64,000 nt of DNA from a virus. The notes under the pieces were generated by a model. That model saw nothing but the letters and a program-made list of their open reading frames with translations. It did not search any database and had not been told where the DNA came from. Positions 6,179-20,723 of the stretch are shown in pieces. Made by a program: the position numbers and the translations under genes. Location of the stretch: positions 1 to 64,000 of the IMG/VR virus record IMGVR_UViG_3300020391_000004. The stretch is one strand, 5' to 3'. Each line of letters opens with the position of its first letter. The stretch's first letter is position 1.

Positions 6179-7280
6179 CCTCCCATTTTTCTCTTCCTTG
6201 TTTTCGATCGTTGCCTACACCCGGTCTAGTTGTAAGCATCATTTTAATTGTTTGTGTATGTTTGAAGCCTACTCTTTCAGCATATGATATCCATTCTTTG
6301 ACGACTTCGTATGGCTCTTTCCTATCGTACGATTTATAGTCGGCGATATTCGTGGCGAAGATTCCTTCTCTATTGAGCCCTCTGTAAATATTTTCCATAG
6401 TCGGAGTAACATAACCTTCAAACCATTCATCCAAAGTTTTATACCTAACCATACATTGAGTTGATTCATTGCTATACTTCTCCAAGTTAAAATAAGGAGG
6501 ACTTGAAAACGCTAAATCAATATCCTCTGGTTTGTATTCTTCACTTACACTTTGTACTATCTTACCTTTTACACCAGTTGCTTCTGTAATTATTTCGTTT
6601 AAATAATTTAAGTAATTGACAGTCTCTGTATTAGGCTCTACACCTATATAATCGTATTTAAAGTTACTAGATCCAATGCCTAATAATCTTCCACCATAAC
6701 CACAACTATAATCATATACTCTACCCCATAATACAGGACATAAATGTTCTACTATTGCTTTTGCATTCTGAGCCTTAAAGTTAGTAACGTTTTCTCCTGT
6801 AACTAATTCTAATGCAGTCCTTAATTGTGTTGGTCTTAGTAGTTTATCACCCGTTCTAAATTCAAAACAAATTCTAATTGCACGTTTTAGTTTAGCGTCA
6901 TTCCAAAATCTATCTTTTAAACTATTACTACCTCTGCCTTTAGGCTCAGCAGTCATCATATTAGGAAATAAAAATCTGTTTATAGTTTGTCCTCTATTAT
7001 TTCCTAAACCTATTACACTATTGTTTACACCATTGTAGGTTTGTTGTGAAAAGGTTTTTACTGCGTCTATTAATCCTTGTTCAGTATAGTAAACTATTGG
7101 TACTAATCCAATGCGCCTATATAAATTAAATACTTCATCTATTACTGCTTGAGGATCTTTATCGTATTGTTCTTTGGTATAACTATCTAGTTTTTCATAT
7201 ACACTTTCATAACCTGTAAATTGATCAGCTACTATATGCTCCGATCTAATTTTCCAAGTATTATGTAAATGATCTATCAA
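6153..7280 (-). CDS. DNA amino-methyltransferase (N6-A/N4-C type)
   Basis: YDYSCGYGG SAM-binding motif followed by the FSSPPY catalytic motif. Confidence 0.85.
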   Translation of the reverse strand: MIDHLHNTWKIRSEHIVADQFTGYESVYEKLDSYTKEQYDKDPQAVIDEVFNLYRRIGLVPIVYYTEQGLIDAVKTFSQQTYNGVNNSVIGLGNNRGQTINRFLFPNMMTAEPKGRGSNSLKDRFWNDAKLKRAIRICFEFRTGDKLLRPTQLRTALELVTGENVTNFKAQNAKAIVEHLCPVLWGRVYDYSCGYGGRLLGIGSSNFKYDYIGVEPNTETVNYLNYLNEIITEATGVKGKIVQSVSEEYKPEDIDLAFSSPPYFNLEKYSNESTQCMVRYKTLDEWFEGYVTPTMENIYRGLNREGIFATNIADYKSYDRKEPYEVVKEWISYAERVGFKHTQTIKMMLTTRPGVGNDRKQGREKWEGVYVFSKL

Positions 7281-7654
7281 CCTCTTCGCATCCTCGCAAT
7301 CTCTTTTGCATCATTACTATCCTTACGTATAGGAACTAAATTACTTTTATGTAGTAATCCGATACCTGCAATTTCATTGCCTGTGTACTGTTGCTCAGGC
7401 TTCTTAGCAGTGCTACCAACAATGTTATTACTGCACTGTGCAGTGCCTTGGTGTGCTTTATAATCAGGGATCTTATTACCTGCATCTGTGTTACCTGCAT
7501 TCCTCTGACTAGGATGGGCACCCATTTTCATAAGGAACTTGTCATGTTCTTTACGACTCTGTAATTCTCTTTCGCTAGGCATCTTTTTAAATTTACCTTT
7601 TTTACGACTATATTTTGTAGTGGTCATCCAAGGACCTAATAAATGCATTGTCAT
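7277..7654 (-). CDS. Conserved phage hypothetical protein
   Basis: YTG..I.GIG.LHKSN.VPI motif; RBS and sigma70 promoter upstream. Confidence 0.7.
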   Translation of the reverse strand: MTMHLLGPWMTTTKYSRKKGKFKKMPSERELQSRKEHDKFLMKMGAHPSQRNAGNTDAGNKIPDYKAHQGTAQCSNNIVGSTAKKPEQQYTGNEIAGIGLLHKSNLVPIRKDSNDAKEIARMRRG

Positions 7655-7706: not shown

Positions 7707-7890
7707 CCTCTATTTTATCTATGATATGTTCTGTGACCGTTTTTCCTGTAGTTTCTTCTACTGCTAAACCTGCCCCACCTGATATGATTCCAGCGGTGTT
7801 TCCTGTAACAAGACTATGCACAAGACTACCTACACCAAATAAAGGGCTACATCCACCTAGCATTAATAATACAACTAGCCTAAGGACCAT
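7687..7890 (-). CDS. Small lipoprotein
   Basis: Hydrophobic N-terminus with an LGGC lipobox. Confidence 0.6.
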   Translation of the reverse strand: MVLRLVVLLMLGGCSPLFGVGSLVHSLVTGNTAGIISGGAGLAVEETTGKTVTEHIIDKIEVDIVLN

Positions 7891-9034
7891 TATATCCCCT
7901 TATTTTTTCTGCAATAGTCTGTGCAGTATAAGCACTCAATGTCCATCCTAAATGTCCATGTCCTGTGTTATACCATACATTAGATTTATTTTTACTTTGG
8001 GCTACTATAGGCATCATACTAGGAGTCATAGGTCTCAGTCCAGCCCAAGGTTTTACATCTTCTGTGTTTATTCCTTCAAACATAGATTCAGCCCAACGTA
8101 CTAAAGGTTTAATTCTTGCTTGAATAATGTCTGTGTTGTATCCATTAAACTCAGCGGTACCTGCTACTCTTAATCTATTTTTTCCTAGTCTTGCAGTAAC
8201 TATCTTTGCTTCGTCATCTAATAAACTTACCCACGGAGCATTTCCTGGATTGTTAATTGTTATACTGTAACCTTTTACAGGATATATAGGCAAATTGTCT
8301 TTAATTGTACTTGCTAATTGTTTACTTCCTGTTCCGGCACAAACTACTATTGGTCCATCAAAGTCTAGTTTATCTACAGTATCAGTTTTAAATACAACTC
8401 CATATTTTTCTTCTAAAACTTTTTCAAGTTCTACGCAAAATTTATGTATATCTCCTGTAAAGTCACTAGTGTTATAAAAGCCTCCTATAATATTAGGATT
8501 GCTTAGTGCAGGTTCAATAGTTTTTATTTCTTCAGTACTAACTTCCCATCTATTTAATCCTGCCGTTCTATATAAATCGTTTGTGGCCCATGCCTGTTCT
8601 AACTCTTCTTCAGTAGTGTAGACATGAAGTATACCTTTTTCTACTTTATCAAACTCTATACCTTCTTCATCTGCAATTTGTTTATATAGTTTGTGTGCTT
8701 CTAAACTCATACGACAGGTTTCTATTGTGTTTACTTTTCTGTTTTTTATTTCTAAAATAAATTTTACAAACCAACTGTATTTGTCTAAACTAGGAGTAAG
8801 GTTTATTTTAAGTGGAGCATCAGGTTGTGTTAACCATTTGATACCTTTTTTAACATTACGCCAACTATTCCATGTTTCAGCATTGCTGGCACTTAGTTGT
8901 CCACCATTAGCATATGAAGTCGCCATTGCAGGATATTTTCTTTCGTCCTGTATAGTGACTTCGTATCCTGCTTTTGCAAGATAATATGCGGTTGTTACTC
9001 CCGTAATTCCTGCACCAATAACCAATGCTTTCAT
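7880..9034 (-). CDS. dadA: D-amino acid dehydrogenase (FAD)
   Basis: GAGITG FAD-binding motif, TSYANGGQLSASNAE, YPVKGYS, WAGLRPMTP, NTGHGHLGWTLS. Confidence 0.9.
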   Translation of the reverse strand: MKALVIGAGITGVTTAYYLAKAGYEVTIQDERKYPAMATSYANGGQLSASNAETWNSWRNVKKGIKWLTQPDAPLKINLTPSLDKYSWFVKFILEIKNRKVNTIETCRMSLEAHKLYKQIADEEGIEFDKVEKGILHVYTTEEELEQAWATNDLYRTAGLNRWEVSTEEIKTIEPALSNPNIIGGFYNTSDFTGDIHKFCVELEKVLEEKYGVVFKTDTVDKLDFDGPIVVCAGTGSKQLASTIKDNLPIYPVKGYSITINNPGNAPWVSLLDDEAKIVTARLGKNRLRVAGTAEFNGYNTDIIQARIKPLVRWAESMFEGINTEDVKPWAGLRPMTPSMMPIVAQSKNKSNVWYNTGHGHLGWTLSAYTAQTIAEKIRGYNGP

Positions 9035-9038
9035 TTTT

Positions 9039-10178
9039 TTATCCTAATAATTTACAAATATTACTTGCTAATTTTATAAAAAAGTCTTCCTTATGACCTT
9101 TTGTAGTTTCAGCAGCAGTTCCAATTCTTATGCCACTTGTTTCTACAAAGTTACGAGGATCATTTGGTACACCGTTTTTGTTTACTGTGATCCCATGTGC
9201 TTCTAGTAGGTCTGCTGCTTGCCTGCCACTATGTTTACTGTCACTTAAATCCATTAGTATAATATGACTATCAGTGCCACCAGTCTGTACAGGAAAATTA
9301 TTTGCTTGAAATACCTGACACATTGCTTTAGCATTTGAAACAATTTGTTTTGCATATATTTTATATTCATCTTCTAATGCTTCCATATAACATTGTGCTT
9401 TTGCGGCTATTATATTCATAAGAGGTCCACCTTGTGTACCAGGAAATATTGAACTGTTAATTCTTCTTGTGTAATCTGGATTATTCCAAAGTATCATACC
9501 GCCACGTGGGCCACGTAAAGTTTTATGTGTTGTACTAGTAACTACATCTGCATATGGTAAAGGTGATTCATATGCATGTCCTGCTACTAAGCCACTATAA
9601 TGTGCCATATCTACAACTAAAATTGCACCTATACTATCTGCAATATTTCTGAATGCACTCCAATCGATTTGTCTAGGATATGCACTTGCACCTGCTACTA
9701 TTACTTTAGGCATATTTAATTTAGCAGTGCCTTCAATAATATTATAATCTAAGTAGCCATTTTCATCAACACCATAAGTAACACTATTGTAAACTTTACC
9801 ACTTAGGGTTGGAGGTGCACCGTGTGAAAGATGTCCACCACTTGCTAAGTCCATACCCATTAGTATATCACCTGGTTTCATAAATGCTTGGTATACTGCG
9901 GTATTTGCATTTACACCACTATGTGGTTGAACGTTTGCAAAATCACATTGATATAATTCACAAACTCTATCTATTGCTAATTGTTCAACTTCATCCATAT
10001 TAACACAACCATTGTAATAACGTTTGCCTGGATATCCTTCTGCGTATTTGTTTGTAAAAATACTCCCACATAAATCCATTACTGCTTGGCTTGCATAGTT
10101 TTCACTTGCAATAAGTTCTATAGTTGAATCTTGTCTTTGTTGTTCTTTGTTTAGTATATTAGTAATTTCTTTATACAT
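9039..10178 (-). CDS. glyA: Serine hydroxymethyltransferase
   Basis: LIASEN, NKYAEGYPGKRYY, GGHLSHG, TTHKTLRGPRGG (PLP lysine). Confidence 0.97.
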   Translation of the reverse strand: MYKEITNILNKEQQRQDSTIELIASENYASQAVMDLCGSIFTNKYAEGYPGKRYYNGCVNMDEVEQLAIDRVCELYQCDFANVQPHSGVNANTAVYQAFMKPGDILMGMDLASGGHLSHGAPPTLSGKVYNSVTYGVDENGYLDYNIIEGTAKLNMPKVIVAGASAYPRQIDWSAFRNIADSIGAILVVDMAHYSGLVAGHAYESPLPYADVVTSTTHKTLRGPRGGMILWNNPDYTRRINSSIFPGTQGGPLMNIIAAKAQCYMEALEDEYKIYAKQIVSNAKAMCQVFQANNFPVQTGGTDSHIILMDLSDSKHSGRQAADLLEAHGITVNKNGVPNDPRNFVETSGIRIGTAAETTKGHKEDFFIKLASNICKLLG

Positions 10179-12088: not shown

Positions 12089-12352
12089 TTATATAGCTAT
12101 CTTTGGTTCTGATCCATTGGTCATTTTGTCTGTTAAATTTTTGACAGCATCACTATCTACACAATAAAAATTACTTACAGGTCTCCCTTTATATTCCTGT
12201 TGTGCTTTTTGTGCTAGTCCATCTGCTTCGTAGTAAACAAATTCTTTACATTCTTCTACTGAGCTAAATGATGGTTCCGATATAATATATACATCTTGAT
12301 TGGGAAATTCTGGTGATGTCATCATCGACATAACAATTAAAATTGTTTCCAT
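12089..12352 (-). CDS. Small exported two-Cys protein
   Basis: Hydrophobic N-terminus, FSSVEEC...FYCV. Confidence 0.6.
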   Translation of the reverse strand: METILIVMSMMTSPEFPNQDVYIISEPSFSSVEECKEFVYYEADGLAQKAQQEYKGRPVSNFYCVDSDAVKNLTDKMTNGSEPKIAI

Positions 12353-12385: not shown

Positions 12386-12823
12386 TTACAGTGTACTCAA
12401 CATCTTTTTTAGTTTTTTCTTTGATTTACCAAAAACCTTTGTTTTAGCAACCAATTTTTTGTTATCGATGTTGTTTCCAACTACTACTAATCCAATCATT
12501 CCCATTGTCTTATGTGGGGTACATTGGTAAAGATAAATTCCAGGTTTTTCAAATGTATAAGTAAACTTCTTATTCATTTTACTTTTAACCTTTTTAATTC
12601 CATCTGGGGCAGCAATGAAATGTACGTTATGTCCTTTTGTTTTAGGTAACCATGTTATTGTATCACCTATCTCAACTTTTACAACGTCTTCAGAGTAGAC
12701 CATCTTTTGACCGTCTGCTCTTTTGTTAAGCATATCAAGTTGCATATCTTTACTGTATGCTAAACCTGAAAACACTACTAAAAATAAATTAACTGTAATA
12801 ACTAATATTAATAAATTTTTCAT
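12386..12823 (-). CDS. Pseudoazurin-type blue copper protein
   Basis: Signal peptide; GHNV and YQCTPHKTMGM supply the His-Cys-His-Met type 1 Cu ligands. Confidence 0.9.
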   Translation of the reverse strand: MKNLLILVITVNLFLVVFSGLAYSKDMQLDMLNKRADGQKMVYSEDVVKVEIGDTITWLPKTKGHNVHFIAAPDGIKKVKSKMNKKFTYTFEKPGIYLYQCTPHKTMGMIGLVVVGNNIDNKKLVAKTKVFGKSKKKLKKMLSTL

Positions 12824-13411: not shown

Positions 13412-14377
13412 TTATAATCCGTTTGGAACTATTACATAGTGTATTGCTAGTACTATTCCTAAACTTGCACCTAAACCTATCATCATCTTCATAAAGTCTC
13501 TTCCTACAATAGGAAATACATTCTTTAGTCTGTATGATCCATTGCTCATTGTACTAATTGCTAGTTCTCTACCACATAGTAGTCCAACAAATACCCAAGT
13601 AGTTGACATCGGTATGTTGTTTAGTTCTTTAAAGACGAACAAGCATAAGAAGTATGCGCCATCAATTATACATGCACTTCGTACATATCTAGTGTGTTGC
13701 TTTTCTAATACAATCTTTTGTATCTTTCCTCCACCTTCACGGAACATAAATCCTAAGCCTAGTACAAATACTAAACTTACACCTATCATCATATCCCATG
13801 GCACTGCTCTTGGCAAAAATACTGCAATATTGGCTACATCATGACTTAACCATGTGAACCATAAGAAGCCTGTTGTAATCCATTGTCCTATACGCCAATA
13901 CTTTTTACGTTCTTCTTTTACTGGATCATTACGTTCATCTAGTCTTCTTGCTACAAGTATCCATAAACAGTAGGCAAACACACCTGCTACTGCATAACCC
14001 ATGATTGATTTCACAAGCATTTTCTCTAGTATAAACGTACTTGCAAAGGCACTTAAAACTAAAAAAGATGTACTAACAGGTACACCTATCCTTGTGAGCA
14101 ATAATAATACTAACGGTGCCATAGCATGATACCATTGTATTTCTTGGAATGGTATCTTAGTTAATCTGCCGTAACTAATATCTCCGCCGTTAGTATACCA
14201 ACCATACCATAAACACCAAAGTAATATTGTGCTACTTGCTCCCCATAATATAGTCCAATGAAATCTTTGATTGTTACTTGCGATCCATGTACCTAATGTT
14301 TGTACACTATCATTCGCAATAACACTATAGCCTGCGAATAAAAATCCCAGTGCCATCCATAATGTTAATTGATCCAT
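13412..14377 (-). CDS. PiT/PHO4-like inorganic phosphate transporter-like membrane protein
   Basis: Multi-TM; ANDSVQTLGT and SHDVANIA repeats echo the PiT GANDVAN signature; PVSTS and PMSTT repeats. Confidence 0.6.
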   Translation of the reverse strand: MDQLTLWMALGFLFAGYSVIANDSVQTLGTWIASNNQRFHWTILWGASSTILLWCLWYGWYTNGGDISYGRLTKIPFQEIQWYHAMAPLVLLLLTRIGVPVSTSFLVLSAFASTFILEKMLVKSIMGYAVAGVFAYCLWILVARRLDERNDPVKEERKKYWRIGQWITTGFLWFTWLSHDVANIAVFLPRAVPWDMMIGVSLVFVLGLGFMFREGGGKIQKIVLEKQHTRYVRSACIIDGAYFLCLFVFKELNNIPMSTTWVFVGLLCGRELAISTMSNGSYRLKNVFPIVGRDFMKMMIGLGASLGIVLAIHYVIVPNGL

Positions 14378-14722: not shown

Positions 14723-14934
14723 AATACAGGTTGTAATACAAGTGAGTTCATACTCACACAACCCATTTCGGTAATATCTACTTTTCCATAAGCACGATTA
14801 GCCGAATCTATCATGTTTGTTTGATTTTTACTTACATATGCTTTGCATTCCATCATATTTGTAAATGGAATACTCTGATTAACTTTAATGTCAGATCCAG
14901 ACAATGATGCTATGACAATATAAATGAATATCAT
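14704..14934 (-). CDS. Small exported two-Cys protein (start revised to 14934)
   Basis: MIFIYIV hydrophobic start, FTNMMEC...MGCV; TAATG coupling. Confidence 0.55.
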   Translation of the reverse strand: MIFIYIVIASLSGSDIKVNQSIPFTNMMECKAYVSKNQTNMIDSANRAYGKVDITEMGCVSMNSLVLQPVFYFEPM

Positions 14935-15155
14935 TAGTACACCTTTGTTGTTTTTGTGTTTATTCTTCGTGGTTCGCATACTGCTATGTATGACCTTGTC
15001 TTAGGAACATCATCGCCTGCTGTCCTGTTGGGAACCGGTGGTTGATTAGTTAGCCTCTCTGCAAAATATTTGCAATCATCAACACTGTAAAAATACATGT
15101 TTTGGCTAATTGTTTTTTGTCCGAGATAAAGTATTAGTAAGAATACGTGAGTCAT
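14934..15155 (-). CDS. Small exported two-Cys protein
   Basis: Hydrophobic start, FYSVDDC...AVCEP. Confidence 0.55.
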   Translation of the reverse strand: MTHVFLLILYLGQKTISQNMYFYSVDDCKYFAERLTNQPPVPNRTAGDDVPKTRSYIAVCEPRRINTKTTKVY

Positions 15156-15161
15156 AATATA

Positions 15162-15653
15162 TCAACTAGTATATACTACTGCTCCAATTACTGCTCCTGC
15201 ACCAATTATTACAACACCTATTACTAAGAGAACTGTTTTTATATCTGCCCATAGTTCTGCATCTGCTTTACGTTTTTCTATACGTGCTTGTTTTTCAGCC
15301 TCTTTAGCTTCTTGGATACGTTTTGCACGTTCATCAACAATACCTTGCCAAGTTCCAGGACCAAAACGTAAATTTATAAGTGTAGAAATTTCCTGCAATT
15401 GCTCAGCGGCTAGTCGTGCATCTATTGTTTCTCTTGCAATATGTGATGCGTCAAATTGTTCCTTTACACCTAATCCTTTCTTATTGGATCTTCTGTTTAC
15501 TTCGTCTTTTCCGCGAAATAAAGCATCAATATGACTACCTAATTCACCTATGTCTTTACAAGTGTCTATATTTGATTTTATAAATTCTACACTAGATTTC
15601 ACTAGTGCAATACCCGCAAGTATTTCTGCTACTGGCATAAAATATCCTCTCAT
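15162..15653 (-). CDS. Coiled-coil protein with C-terminal TM
   Basis: Charged helical middle and hydrophobic C-terminus; late promoter upstream. Confidence 0.6.
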   Translation of the reverse strand: MRGYFMPVAEILAGIALVKSSVEFIKSNIDTCKDIGELGSHIDALFRGKDEVNRRSNKKGLGVKEQFDASHIARETIDARLAAEQLQEISTLINLRFGPGTWQGIVDERAKRIQEAKEAEKQARIEKRKADAELWADIKTVLLVIGVVIIGAGAVIGAVVYTS

Positions 15654-15682
15654 TATCTCTCAATAGTATTTATACTACTATA

Positions 15683-16894
15683 TTAAGACTTGAGTACTGA
15701 TACTCCTATGCTAATAGGTAAGGGTTTTGTCTTTTCGAATTTTGGAAGTAATGGTAACAATATCATAAAGTGTATAAAATAATATGCAGTTGCTATTCTA
15801 GAAAGCACAACATATATGCCTTCAGCTGGCATAGCACCTAAATATCCTAGTGCAATACAATCTACGAACAGGATCCAAAAGAATATTTTATACCAAGGCC
15901 TAAATGTACTGCTTCTCACAGGTGACCTATCAAGCCACGGTAAAACAAACAATACGACTATAGCACCAAACATTAATAGCACTCCACCTAGTTTGTCAGG
16001 CACTGCACGTAGTATTGCATAGAAAGGTAAAAAGTACCATTCAGGAACAATGTGGGCTGGAGTTACCATTGGGTTTGCAGGTATGTAATTATCTGGATGC
16101 CCCATAAAATTTGGAAAGAAAAATATTGCAGCAGCAAATAATGTTAAGAAAACTCCTAGTCCAAATAGATCTTTAATTGTGTAATATGGATGAAAAGGTA
16201 GTGTATCTTGTGTTCCTTTAATATCAATTCCAATAGGATTGTTAGAACCAAATCTATGTAATGCAACTAAATGTAATATTACTACTCCAACTATAACAAA
16301 TGGAAGTACAAAATGCAAACTAAAGAATCTGTTTAACAGTGCATTGTCTACACTAAAACCACCCCATAGCCATGTAACAAATTGTTCGCCTACTAATGGT
16401 ATTGCACTAAACAAGTTTGTAATAACCGTTGCACCCCAGAAGCTCATCTGTCCCCATGGTAATACATAACCCATAAAAGCAGTTGCCATCATTAGTAGTA
16501 GTATTAGTACACCTAGTATCCATAACAGTTCTCGAGGTGCTTTGTAACTGCCGTAATAGAGCCCTCGGAATATATGAATGTAAGTTACAATGAAAAAGAA
16601 ACTTGCTCCATTCATGTGTATGTAACGTATTAACCATCCGTGATTTACATCTCGCATAATACGTTCTACACTATCAAATGCATAATCAACGTGTGCAGTA
16701 TAATTCATACTTAGAACAATACCAGTGATTATCATTGTGACTAGTGCTATACCACTAAGACTTCCAAAGTTCCACATATAGTTTAGGTTCTTTGGAGTAG
16801 GGTACTCGTTAAGTTCGTGATTCATAAAAGTGAATATACCAAGTCTGTGGTCTATCCAATTTACAACGGAATTTTTAAATTTTTTATTTGCCAT
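15683..16894 (-). CDS. petB: Cytochrome b of the cytochrome bc1 complex
   Basis: [57 protein letters not shown]; all four heme-ligand His present; 403 aa. Confidence 0.98.
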
Positions 16895-17061
16895 ATTGAT
16901 ATTTATTATTTCGATTGGTTAAGTCTTTGATGGAGTTTCTTAACTCCATAATTTTGTTGTTTTATATACATAATTTGAGATGATCTTAAAACTTGAATTA
17001 TAGGACCATTTGGTGCAACAATTTTTTCTATTGACGGAATATGTTTGACGTACTTAGCCAC

Positions 17062-18090
17062 TTACACTTTAGCCATAGTCAACTTTAATTGCACAAATAC
17101 TTCTTTAGGACTAGCAGCACTTGGAATAATACTAATACCATGAGCACCAAATTGTCCAGCTTCTCTATACTTCGCAAAGTCTCCTCCGTTATTTACACAA
17201 ATATATTTGAGATTGGAAAAATTTATTGCTAGTACACTATCAAATCCGTGACTTGCTTTATAGCTATCAAAATTTGCTTTACCGTACATAATCTCTGCAC
17301 GTTTTGAATCATCTTGCATAAATGCTTCTACAAATGGTCCAGGATTTTTAAATATTGTATCATACCATTTACCTAGCATTTCTTGTCTTTGTTTCTTTTT
17401 CTCAGGATCATTTAATGGTAAATCTATACTAAGATATTTCATAAAATTATCTAATCCAAGAGTTGCTTGTTTGGATATATGATTTGCAATGCTAGGAAGT
17501 TGTGTCCAATATTCCTTAGCTACTGCAGCAGTAGGGCCTCCTTCACCTAAGCGACCTCCGCCTGTTTTCATTTCTGCTTTTACTTCAATACCGGCTCCGT
17601 CGACCGAAATATCCCCGCCGGTATCTTTAAGTGTTATCTTATTTGACAACATTGCTAGTGCATATTCTCCAGGACCTTTTTGTTTTTTTCCGGCTCCGAG
17701 AGTAGCAATAGATTGAAATATTCTTGTTGCAGTCTCATCACCATCAAAAAATGATCTTACTGTTCCAATACCAGGTGTCTTTACAACTGAGGTATTTACG
17801 ACGCTTCCTGTTTCTAGTTTATCTAAAAATTTTACTAAACTTTTATAGTCTACGCCTGAATGGTAAATCATCTGTGTTAGTATTTTCAAAAGGGGCTCTA
17901 GTTTAAATGTGTCATCTTGTGTTGGTGGAATAAAAGATTTTGCAATTTTAGTGCTAATATCTTCGCTACTTAATGTTCTATATATTCTATCCAACAACTC
18001 AGCATCTTGTTCGTTATCTGCTCGCAGTCCAGATACAGAAGCAATAATTGCCTTTTTCATTTCGTCGGAGTTAAGTTCATATAACAGCAT
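17062..18090 (-). CDS. Putative PD-(D/E)xK nuclease-like protein with N-terminal MLLYEL motif
   Basis: GPGEYAL...GGDISVDGAGIEVK (D...ExK). Confidence 0.45.
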   Translation of the reverse strand: MLLYELNSDEMKKAIIASVSGLRADNEQDAELLDRIYRTLSSEDISTKIAKSFIPPTQDDTFKLEPLLKILTQMIYHSGVDYKSLVKFLDKLETGSVVNTSVVKTPGIGTVRSFFDGDETATRIFQSIATLGAGKKQKGPGEYALAMLSNKITLKDTGGDISVDGAGIEVKAEMKTGGGRLGEGGPTAAVAKEYWTQLPSIANHISKQATLGLDNFMKYLSIDLPLNDPEKKKQRQEMLGKWYDTIFKNPGPFVEAFMQDDSKRAEIMYGKANFDSYKASHGFDSVLAINFSNLKYICVNNGGDFAKYREAGQFGAHGISIIPSAASPKEVFVQLKLTMAKV

Positions 18091-18881: not shown

Positions 18882-19187
18882 CTAATTTGATTCTAATTTT
18901 ATTTCTAGAGGATAGCCTTGATTCCTTGCACTAAGTAAAACTTCTACACCTTTTTGCTCTGCAACTTCAAAAGGTAATTGTGCAACCACTCCTGAACCTC
19001 GTTCATTAATCTCCATTGCTTTTTGATCTGCATCAGTAGATTCATATGAAAAAGTTCCCATTAAACTTTCTGTAACGAATTGAAATGTTGTTACATTATC
19101 ATTTAAATATATAATTTTGTAATCCTTAGGTGGTTCAAGTTCATTTAATATTGGTCTTATTTTTTGTTTAACTTCCGTGTCACTCAT
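18882..19187 (-). CDS. clpS: ATP-dependent Clp protease adaptor ClpS (atypical)
   Basis: EPPKDYKIIYLNDNVTTFQFV...EVAEQK...YPL pattern. Confidence 0.9.
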   Translation of the reverse strand: MSDTEVKQKIRPILNELEPPKDYKIIYLNDNVTTFQFVTESLMGTFSYESTDADQKAMEINERGSGVVAQLPFEVAEQKGVEVLLSARNQGYPLEIKLESN

Positions 19188-19205
19188 GTAAACTCCATGT
19201 TATAT

Positions 19206-19225
19206 GGGGAGTATTGCTACTCCCC
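19206..19225 (-). terminator. Stem-loop after Hsp20 (terminator or stabiliser)
   Basis: GGGGAGTA-GCAA-TACTCCCC perfect 8-bp stem; weak U-tract. Confidence 0.55.
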
Positions 19226-19242
19226 TTACTAGTATTTACTAT

Positions 19243-19725
19243 TTAAGTATTTTTAATTTCAATTTTGATTGGCTTTTTTTCTTCTGGAATTATTCTTTCC
19301 AAGTTAATGTAAAGCATACCATCCTTGAACTGAGCACCTTCAACTTTAATGTCATCTGCAAGTGTCCACTTTCTAGTAAAACCACGTTGTGCTATACCTC
19401 TATGTACAAATGTTCCAGCAAAATTATTCTCATCAAACTTTGGTGGATTATGTGTTATAGTAAGTACACCATCAGCAGTTTCAATATCTAAGTCTTCTTG
19501 CTTGACTCCTGCTAGTGCCATTTCGATTTGTATAAATTCATCATTCTCACCATGCTTTACAATATTGTAAGGCGGATATCCTGTACTTGATGATTGATGG
19601 TCAACATAACGAAACATGTCGTCAAAGACTCTATCGAATCCTACAGCATATGGTGTTAATTTATTAAAATCCTTTGATAGGACATCTTTAAATGAATTAA
19701 AATCAAGTGAAGAAATTCTAGTCAT
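19243..19725 (-). CDS. ibpA: Small heat shock protein (IbpA/Hsp20)
   Basis: VGFDR.F, YPPYNI, EMALAG, HRGIAQRGF.R.W.L, GML.I.LERIIPEEKKP. Confidence 0.95.
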   Translation of the reverse strand: MTRISSLDFNSFKDVLSKDFNKLTPYAVGFDRVFDDMFRYVDHQSSSTGYPPYNIVKHGENDEFIQIEMALAGVKQEDLDIETADGVLTITHNPPKFDENNFAGTFVHRGIAQRGFTRKWTLADDIKVEGAQFKDGMLYINLERIIPEEKKPIKIEIKNT

Positions 19726-20370: not shown

Positions 20371-20723
20371 TTAGTCATCCATTTTATTAAAGGATCTATA
20401 GGATCCTTGACTTCGTTTAAATTAAATTGTTTGTACAATTGCTTATTATTATAGTAGTAAACATTGGTTTTGTCAATAAAAAAACCTAAAAAAAGTTCAC
20501 TATATTCACAATTAATAATCGTCATTTCAGCCTGATAATAAGCCTGAGAAATCCAATCTAAGGTTGCATCTTGATTAGTAATATAAATTGTTATCGGATT
20601 TTTCAATCTTCTTGCACTATCTATTATAGTCTCAGCATATTCATCGCAACCTATACACAGTATAGCAGGATTATTTGCATAATATATATCTGGTGCAGTC
20701 ACTACTATAACATCAGATGACAT
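20316..20723 (-). CDS. Conserved phage hypothetical protein
   Basis: VTAPDIYY start; operon context. Confidence 0.6.
   Translation of the reverse strand: MSSDVIVVTAPDIYYANNPAILCIGCDEYAETIIDSARRLKNPITIYITNQDATLDWISQAYYQAEMTIINCEYSELFLGFFIDKTNVYYYNNKQLYKQFNLNEVKDPIDPLIKWMTKWQDNKDQQEKNKDYMSK

Follow-up and report, generated by a model that had tools for sequence, protein, structure and literature searches.

The DNA analyzed here (the window) comprises the first 64 kb (64,000 nucleotides) of the 131,614-b IMG/VR virus record IMGVR_UViG_3300020391_000004, a fragment of a contractile-tailed jumbo phage genome, and it carries a complete gene for cytochrome b, the core subunit of the respiratory bc1 complex (complex III), with no gene for the partner subunits, the Rieske iron-sulfur protein and cytochrome c1. 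This cytochrome b is host derived, has long been maintained under strong purifying selection, and has been acquired repeatedly by phages. Judging from sequence comparisons, it is probably the product of a phage auxiliary metabolic gene that supplies the core subunit of complex III to the Rieske and c1 proteins of the host.

A host-derived cytochrome b under purifying selection

The gene has the following position and extent:

15683 to 16894, minus strand: cytochrome b gene (petB/fbcB type) with fused N- and C-terminal domains, 403 amino acids (aa), ATG start, TAA stop

Conserved domains were identified over their full lengths in this open reading frame (ORF). Pfam family PF00033 was matched with an E value of 1.6e-76 (256.8 bits against a cut-off of 27.2; positions 3 to 189 of 189), and PF00032 was matched in the same polypeptide with an E value of 1.6e-45 (154 bits against a cut-off of 20.7; positions 1 to 102 of 102). 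The fusion of the two domains in one chain indicates the bc1 architecture and not the split b6/subunit IV form. The heme ligands are H93/H194 and H107/H208 (P0001 numbering, used throughout), with H93 and H107 on one helix and H194 and H208 on the other; the ligands are spaced 14 residues apart within each helix and are kept in all aligned copies of the two viral types, V1 and V2, described below. The Qo-site motifs WGATVIT (residues 153 to 159) and PEWY (residues 284 to 287) are present, as are the Qi-site residues H213 and K241-D242. An earlier note on this DNA, made from the sequence alone, had described an intact 403-aa cytochrome b with all four heme histidines, both Qo-site motifs, and Qi-site residues, and this description was confirmed; the gene span given there ended at 16905 and so included an 11-nucleotide (nt) leader, the ORF itself running from 15683 to 16894.

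The closest relatives of known structure are all cytochromes b of complex III, namely, those of plant mitochondria (8bel; E, 4e-149), Paracoccus (2yiu), and Rhodobacter (1zrt and 2qjp), and the alignment to solved cytochrome b is gap poor across residues 20 to 385. A crude Kyte-Doolittle window gave seven hydrophobic segments, the family expectation being eight transmembrane helices. The C-terminal tail of the window copy is 14 aa shorter than that of most V1 copies, and the length of this tail is variable among viral and cellular copies alike. In GC content and in GC3, the gene agrees with the phage.

Neither a Rieske protein (PF00355) nor a cytochrome c1 (PF02167) was matched at an E value of ≤1 anywhere in the 131,614-b record, and BLASTP with 52 PetA and 50 PetC queries from cellular loci gave zero matches in any of the 76 other viral loci. 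The motif CXXCH occurs in a single ORF of the record, and that ORF is glutaredoxin-like. The possibility that one of the neighboring genes encodes an unrecognized c-type cytochrome or Rieske protein was rejected, as none was detected by Pfam, by the PetA/PetC BLASTP, or by the CXXCH scan. The absence of petABC partners, which the earlier note had claimed for the vicinity of the gene, thus applies to the 131-kb record and to the 76 viral loci.

The earlier note had proposed a viral database search and a phylogeny of the donor lineage. Scanning of IMG/VR yielded 76 loci with a cytochrome b relative, which fall into two types. V1 (87 to 92% identical; 32 full-length rows, one of them the window copy) was recovered from at least 26 metagenome datasets, and even closer proteins exist, such as the 95%-identical P0002 on a 215-kb contig. 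Many of the V1 contigs belong to T4-like myoviruses, as they encode a gp32-type single-stranded DNA-binding protein (SSB), baseplate hub, tail tube, primase, RNase H, and class II ribonucleotide reductase (RNR); with V1 in T4-like and jumbo contigs, one gene type is found in two unrelated phage architectures. V2 (56 to 66% identical; 31 rows) directly adjoins homologues of the RNR subunits, the tail-spike-like gene, DnaB, or the DnaE polymerase of the window phage, and V2-like proteins are located on contigs of up to 283 to 306 kb. In the T4-like V1 contigs L055 and L013, a DUF1289 ORF and the class II RNR gene lie upstream of cytochrome b, which is directly followed by a SegE-type GIY-YIG homing endonuclease gene (PF19835; E, 5e-36; L055:9263-9664 and L013:9263-9664). 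This endonuclease is a plausible vehicle for the transfer of cytochrome b between co-infecting phages. GenBank phage records contained no comparable cytochrome b gene. The sole match there was to an ORF annotated as hypothetical at the extreme end of the record of Helicobacter phage Pt11470_1 (PQ159902.1:35702-36760; 39% identity), which is probably the host flank of a prophage.

In a tree of 145 rows, the 32 viral V1 rows formed a single clade (support, 98), and their sister was the SAR116 single-cell genome AH-287-L13 (support, 98 and 99), with a cytochrome b identity of 87%. This genome has a canonical petA-petB-petC operon and, like the phage, a low GC content. The next relatives outward are further SAR116 sequences, which places V1 inside SAR116, and a cellular metagenome contig with petABC (L163) encodes a cytochrome b that is 88% identical. 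On this phylogeny, the donor of the window copy is a low-GC SAR116-type alphaproteobacterial lineage. The tree gives this lineage instead of the Rhodobacter- or Paracoccus-like donor that the earlier note had implied. SAR11 was also considered as the donor of the window copy and was rejected, its identities being 65 to 67% and its position in the tree far off. The low-GC SAR116 lineage is also the probable host, because the similarities of cytochrome b and of the cupredoxin and DAO-family oxidoreductase genes (see below) point there.

V2 forms a separate long-stemmed clade (support, 100) that includes Fonsibacter/Pelagibacterales proteins; the chromosomal cytochromes b of these bacteria (P0174, P0177, P0217, and P0235) are nested in V2, apart from those of marine Pelagibacteraceae. 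A single viral clade was rejected by the approximately unbiased (AU) test (31 rows; LG+G4; delta lnL, 389; p, 1e-32), in which the tested group had been named after the tree was seen, and phages have therefore gained cytochrome b at least twice. The window phage has a backbone in common with V2-bearing phages, yet it carries V1, located elsewhere, and its RNR genes are not accompanied by a cytochrome b, so that it looks as if one acquired cytochrome b type had been replaced by another. The jumbo V1 subclade (the window copy, P0002, P0008, and P0010) was either nested in the T4-like copies or sister to them, depending on which of two trees was considered.

The median NG86 dN/dS ratio was 0.045 over the 182 V1 pairs with 0.05<dS<1.5. 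Between the window copy and other V1 copies, dN was 0.07 to 0.10 and the synonymous sites were saturated, and the reading frame was unbroken in every full-length copy. Relaxed selection, which the earlier note had named as a finding that would refute its reading, was not seen, and the selection is purifying instead. Among 80 cellular alphaproteobacterial proteins, 122 positions are at least 97% invariant; 118 of these are retained in V1 and 109 in V2.

Possible roles in the host respiratory chain

Since the Qo, Qi, and heme sites are kept under strong constraint, the protein appears still to act as a cytochrome b. In the bc1 mechanism, quinol oxidation at the Qo site needs the Rieske cluster, as first acceptor, and cytochrome c1. 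Because the phages never carry the genes for these two proteins, assembly with the subunits of the host is the simplest model. The earlier note had suggested that the phage protein could replace the host subunit within bc1, which would be consistent with the almost full retention of the sites that are invariant in cells. According to the assembly model, cytochrome b would be made by the phage during infection, enter the inner membrane of the host, bind two b hemes, and assemble with the host Rieske iron-sulfur protein and cytochrome c1. Quinol oxidation could then be kept up or raised, providing proton-motive force and ATP for a large phage genome after host expression declines, and complex III would be sustained or increased over the long infection of a slow-growing host. 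The onward transfer of electrons in the periplasm would probably be carried out by a cupredoxin of the phage. This cupredoxin and a further oxidoreductase are encoded on the same strand as cytochrome b:

12386 to 12823, minus strand: exported cupredoxin (plastocyanin/azurin family), 145 aa, with an N-terminal signal-like segment (PF00127; E, 1.4e-17)
7880 to 9034, minus strand: DAO-family FAD oxidoreductase, 384 aa (PF01266; E, 1e-58)

The cupredoxin, which also matches phrog_515 ("PetE plastocyanine"), is encoded 2.9 kb from cytochrome b in the window. In the viral loci L021, L028, and L029, its homologues (62 to 67% identity) immediately precede cytochrome b, separated from it by 2 nt. Homologues with 53 to 57% identity were identified in the SAR116 genomes G001 and G002, and none was found in the one SAR11 genome tested. 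The cupredoxin thus fits as a candidate functional partner of cytochrome b, predicted to act in the same segment of the respiratory chain. The DAO-family oxidoreductase has SAR116 homologues with 47 to 61% identity, the best of the three tested genomes being G001, the same SAR116 single-cell genome as for cytochrome b. It is possible, as a lead only, that this enzyme is a quinone-reducing input. The oxidoreductase gene adjoins a gene for a 379-aa protein matching phrog_9968 ("methyltransferase"; E, 1.4e-160), and the two occupy positions 7880 to 10178 on the minus strand.

Several points weigh against the reading of the gene as an auxiliary metabolic gene of this kind. Assembly of the bc1 complex starts from cytochrome b, which is not an exchangeable peripheral subunit and is not known to turn over fast, so that there is no ready reason why cytochrome b alone would be limiting; moreover, new complexes would need spare Rieske and c1 proteins from the host. 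Two residues that are fixed in cells have changed in the viruses. Pro19, found in all 80 cellular proteins and also in V2, is Gly in 32 of 32 V1 copies (at about 16838 to 16840 in the window). Thr186, located just before helix D, is likewise shared by all 80 cellular proteins; V1 has Leu there in 31 of 32 copies (at about 16337 to 16339 in the window), and V2 has Phe in 16 of 31, so that residue 186 is altered in both viral clades. These changes at Pro19 and Thr186 could mean a modified rather than an identical function. Furthermore, the host assignment is based solely on gene phylogeny, and a terminase query gave no phage contig in SAR116 single-cell genomes, the same being the result for SAR11 single-cell genomes. 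Finally, the downstream junction, from cytochrome b to the ORF at 15162 to 15653, was not repeated among the other contigs retrieved.

The viral changes at two cell-invariant positions, including the same Thr in both clades, might also suit a cytochrome b that works without Rieske and c1 proteins, as a stand-alone di-heme membrane protein that rewires the chain by conducting electrons through the membrane or by linking quinol to the cupredoxin. The lack of partner subunits in every viral locus and the operon-like coupling of the cupredoxin gene to cytochrome b in L021, L028, and L029 point in the same direction. We nevertheless consider such a protein unlikely, since quinol oxidation at the Qo site requires the Rieske cluster as its first acceptor in the established bc1 mechanism, and the retention of the Rieske docking motifs WGATVIT and PEWY, together with 118 of 122 invariant sites at a dN/dS of 0.045, is hard to explain if there are no partners.

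The fixed virus-specific substitutions P19G and T186L could alternatively reflect a takeover of the host or competition with it, and not a supply of energy, in which the phage subunit would displace that of the host and alter complex III, for example with respect to its output of reactive oxygen species, its sensitivity to inhibitors, or its escape from a defence that stops respiration. Independent acquisition and long retention in unrelated phage types do indicate a strong benefit of some kind. However, the viral protein shares 87 to 88% of its residues with its cellular counterpart in the donor lineage, its catalytic motifs are all intact, there is no sign of an inactive or poisoning form, and no known defence system targeting cytochrome b was identified in this analysis; competition of this kind is quite improbable.

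A neutral passenger, recently captured and destined to decay, is already contradicted by the data and has very little probability: phages do take up host DNA, and the position of cytochrome b varies between related phages, but the synonymous sites are saturated at a dN of only 0.07 to 0.10 and a median dN/dS of 0.045, the monophyletic viral clade extends over at least 26 metagenomes and two types of phage architecture, and none of the full-length copies has a broken frame.

Phage genome, assembly, and timing of expression

The completeness of the record was estimated by CheckV to be 38%, which would put the whole genome at about 350 kb. The record encodes a 1,075-aa tail sheath, the large terminase (TerL), and a virion structural protein, as well as a UvsX-like recombinase, SSB, helicases including DnaB, and a class I RNR. 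The closest GenBank match of its DnaE-type polymerase is in a 484-kb uncultured phage, and 163 of its 181 ORFs are on one strand. The record is a fragment of the genome of a contractile-tailed jumbo phage. The following features surround cytochrome b:

18882 to 19725, minus strand: ClpS protease adaptor (PF02617) and Hsp20 (phrog_432), adjacent, 2 kb upstream of cytochrome b
17062 to 18090, minus strand: upstream neighbor, 342-aa phage-only protein (ESM Atlas protein clusters 100% viral)
16906 to 17061, minus strand: 51-aa ORF between the 342-aa gene and cytochrome b
16899 to 16906, minus strand: ATAAATAT, promoter-like motif, 12 nt ahead of the cytochrome b ATG
15666 to 15673, minus strand: ATAAATAC, motif of the downstream neighbor, 20 nt before its start
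15162 to 15653, minus strand: downstream neighbor, 163-aa phage-only protein with a hydrophobic C-terminal segment (nearest ESM Atlas clusters 100% viral)

Pfam and PHROG gave no family for either of the direct neighbors (342 and 163 aa). Both fall into protein clusters that are 100% viral, and the phage-type flanks described in the earlier note are thereby substantiated. Within a run of small membrane proteins that extends from the cupredoxin to cytochrome b, a 321-aa protein with five hydrophobic segments (13412 to 14377, minus strand) showed a weak, sub-threshold match to PHO4 phosphate transporters (E, 5.6e-5).

The contig L218 (MDTC01125771.1), which comes from a separate assembly, is collinear with positions 20,487 to 16,077 of the window at 80 to 89% nucleotide identity and has the same gene order, namely, Hsp20, ClpS, a 223-aa gene, the 342-aa gene, the 51-aa ORF, and cytochrome b. 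Its cytochrome b is 98.5% identical at the amino acid level to the window copy, and its homologue of the 342-aa protein (73% identity) occupies the same place before cytochrome b. L218 differs from the window by an additional 364-aa gene after ClpS. Other viral contigs bearing cytochrome b hold homologues of the ORFs at 12386 to 12823 (the cupredoxin), 12089 to 12352, 14934 to 15155, and 7277 to 7654. The earlier note had raised a chimeric assembly at the flanks as a concern; the upstream junction recurs in the independent contig, and the downstream one is without a replicate. As far as these tests reached, the gene is confirmed to be truly phage borne and not an assembly artifact.

IMG/VR does include misfiled DNA, but the joining of a bacterial petB into a phage contig, by chimeric assembly or cellular contamination, has a negligible probability, as phage-only genes adjoin cytochrome b on both sides, the phage's own start-proximal motif stands 12 nt ahead of the ATG, the upstream junction was seen again in L218, no petA or petC remnants were found in the Pfam scan of the record or by BLASTP of the viral loci, and the window sequence clusters with other viral copies and with no cellular one. 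One example of misfiled DNA is L076:6601-9649 (IMGVR_UViG_GVMAG-S-1091232-121), which is labeled as a giant virus metagenome-assembled genome and is a mitochondrial fragment. Its cytochrome b is interrupted by an insert of ~970 b with a 214-aa ORF, a candidate intron-borne endonuclease, and is followed by cytochrome oxidase subunit II. As L076 is mitochondrial, it was excluded from the analysis, and not every IMG/VR match to cytochrome b is viral.

The sequence ATAAATA-TCAAT-ATG precedes cytochrome b, in agreement with the earlier note, which had concluded from it that the gene is apparently late expressed, as are the virion genes. The motif resembles the late promoter of phage T4, TATAAATA; the copy before cytochrome b, AATAAATAT, matches it at 7 of 8 positions. 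ATAAATA[CT] occurs 31 times in the 131-kb record, with 23 copies on the coding-rich strand; in the window, it is overall no more frequent than expected by chance. Its placement is uneven, as 19 of the 31 copies are located 6 to 60 nt upstream of a same-strand start, compared to an expectation of 3.8% (binomial p, 9e-20). The genes preceded by it include the virion structural gene (at 12 nt, as for cytochrome b), the tail-spike-like gene, and genes adjoining the tail sheath. As this start-proximal motif is common to cytochrome b and virion genes, late transcription of cytochrome b is plausible in the window phage. The related phages differ in that their cytochrome b gene lies in an RNR cluster, where it overlaps or adjoins the ORF upstream, and lacks the motif. 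The idea that a late promoter is conserved ahead of the gene in these relatives was rejected, most copies being translationally coupled to the upstream ORF or to nrd genes. The late timing proposed in the earlier note is thus only partly supported, by the enrichment of the motif before starts, including those of virion genes, in the window phage, and the coupling of cytochrome b to RNR genes in the relatives means that it is no general property.

Relation to known phage-borne genes

The cyanophage genes psbA and psbD encode host-derived core subunits (D1 and D2), are carried alone and under purifying selection, and are thought to yield proteins that assemble with host subunits and so maintain the energy flow of the infected cell. 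The fast turnover of D1 accounts for the carriage of psbA. Carried alone and taken from a host, the phage cytochrome b likewise belongs to the membrane core of an energy-converting complex, which suggests, by analogy, that it may be the respiratory counterpart of the cyanophage photosynthesis genes; the complex in question is the respiratory complex III of heterotrophic alphaproteobacteria and not a photosystem. Cyanophages also bear electron carriers of the host chain, such as petE (plastocyanin), petF, and PTOX, and the window phage is similar to them in having a cupredoxin of the plastocyanin/azurin family. However, these serve phototrophic hosts as soluble carriers or as a bypass oxidase, whereas cytochrome b is the core of a proton-translocating complex. 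Compared to the cellular alphaproteobacterial PetB/FbcB proteins of Paracoccus denitrificans (2yiu and 9fks) and Rhodobacter capsulatus (1zrt), the architecture is the same (E, 1e-142 to 1e-144), but the viral gene is in a phage genome and outside any petABC operon, and V1 has Gly at position 19 and Leu at position 186.

Single subunits of membrane enzymes have been described for phage pmoC in large freshwater phages of methanotrophs (PMC7674155) and for viral or phage amoC (10.1101/053090; 10.64898/2026.06.18.733297). Like cytochrome b, pmoC and amoC each specify one integral-membrane subunit without partner genes, derive from the host lineage, and are often found in large or jumbo phages. 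Unlike cytochrome b, which is the quinol-oxidizing core of the chain, they encode subunits of copper monooxygenases that feed in substrate-derived electrons. In the literature searched, the coverage of which was incomplete, we found no published description of a phage bc1-type cytochrome b, in accordance with the supposition in the earlier note that this is not a described auxiliary gene. Every match to "viral cytochrome b" in the literature concerned the cytochrome b5 of giant viruses, and targeted reading of a paper on marine jumbo phages (PMC9123017) and of a jumbo phage survey (PMC13037316) gave no report of a phage cytochrome b.

A wider reading, which we regard as possible but doubtful, is that phages of marine heterotrophs, much as cyanophages do for photosynthesis, carry a respiratory module, composed of cytochrome b and the cupredoxin, that rebuilds or rewires the complex III segment, with the gene moving between unrelated phage types and, in the case of V2, maybe back into cells. 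Movement between phage types is suggested by the SegE-type endonuclease that adjoins cytochrome b in the T4-like contigs, and a return of V2 to cells is suggested by the nesting of the Fonsibacter sequences among viral copies. If this reading is true, cytochrome b would be the complex III subunit that is labile or limiting in bacteria of the oligotrophic ocean.

The established auxiliary metabolic genes concern photosynthesis, sulfur, nitrogen, and methane oxidation. For the aerobic respiratory chain of dominant ocean heterotrophs (SAR116 and, for V2, SAR11), no phage-encoded core subunit is described in the literature searched. That different phage types have captured the gene repeatedly and independently speaks for a large benefit. 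If the phage cytochrome b does assemble with host subunits, phages would directly maintain oxidative phosphorylation in the cells that they infect, and cytochrome b would be the weak link of complex III, for which the viral copies would provide a natural set of variants to test that.

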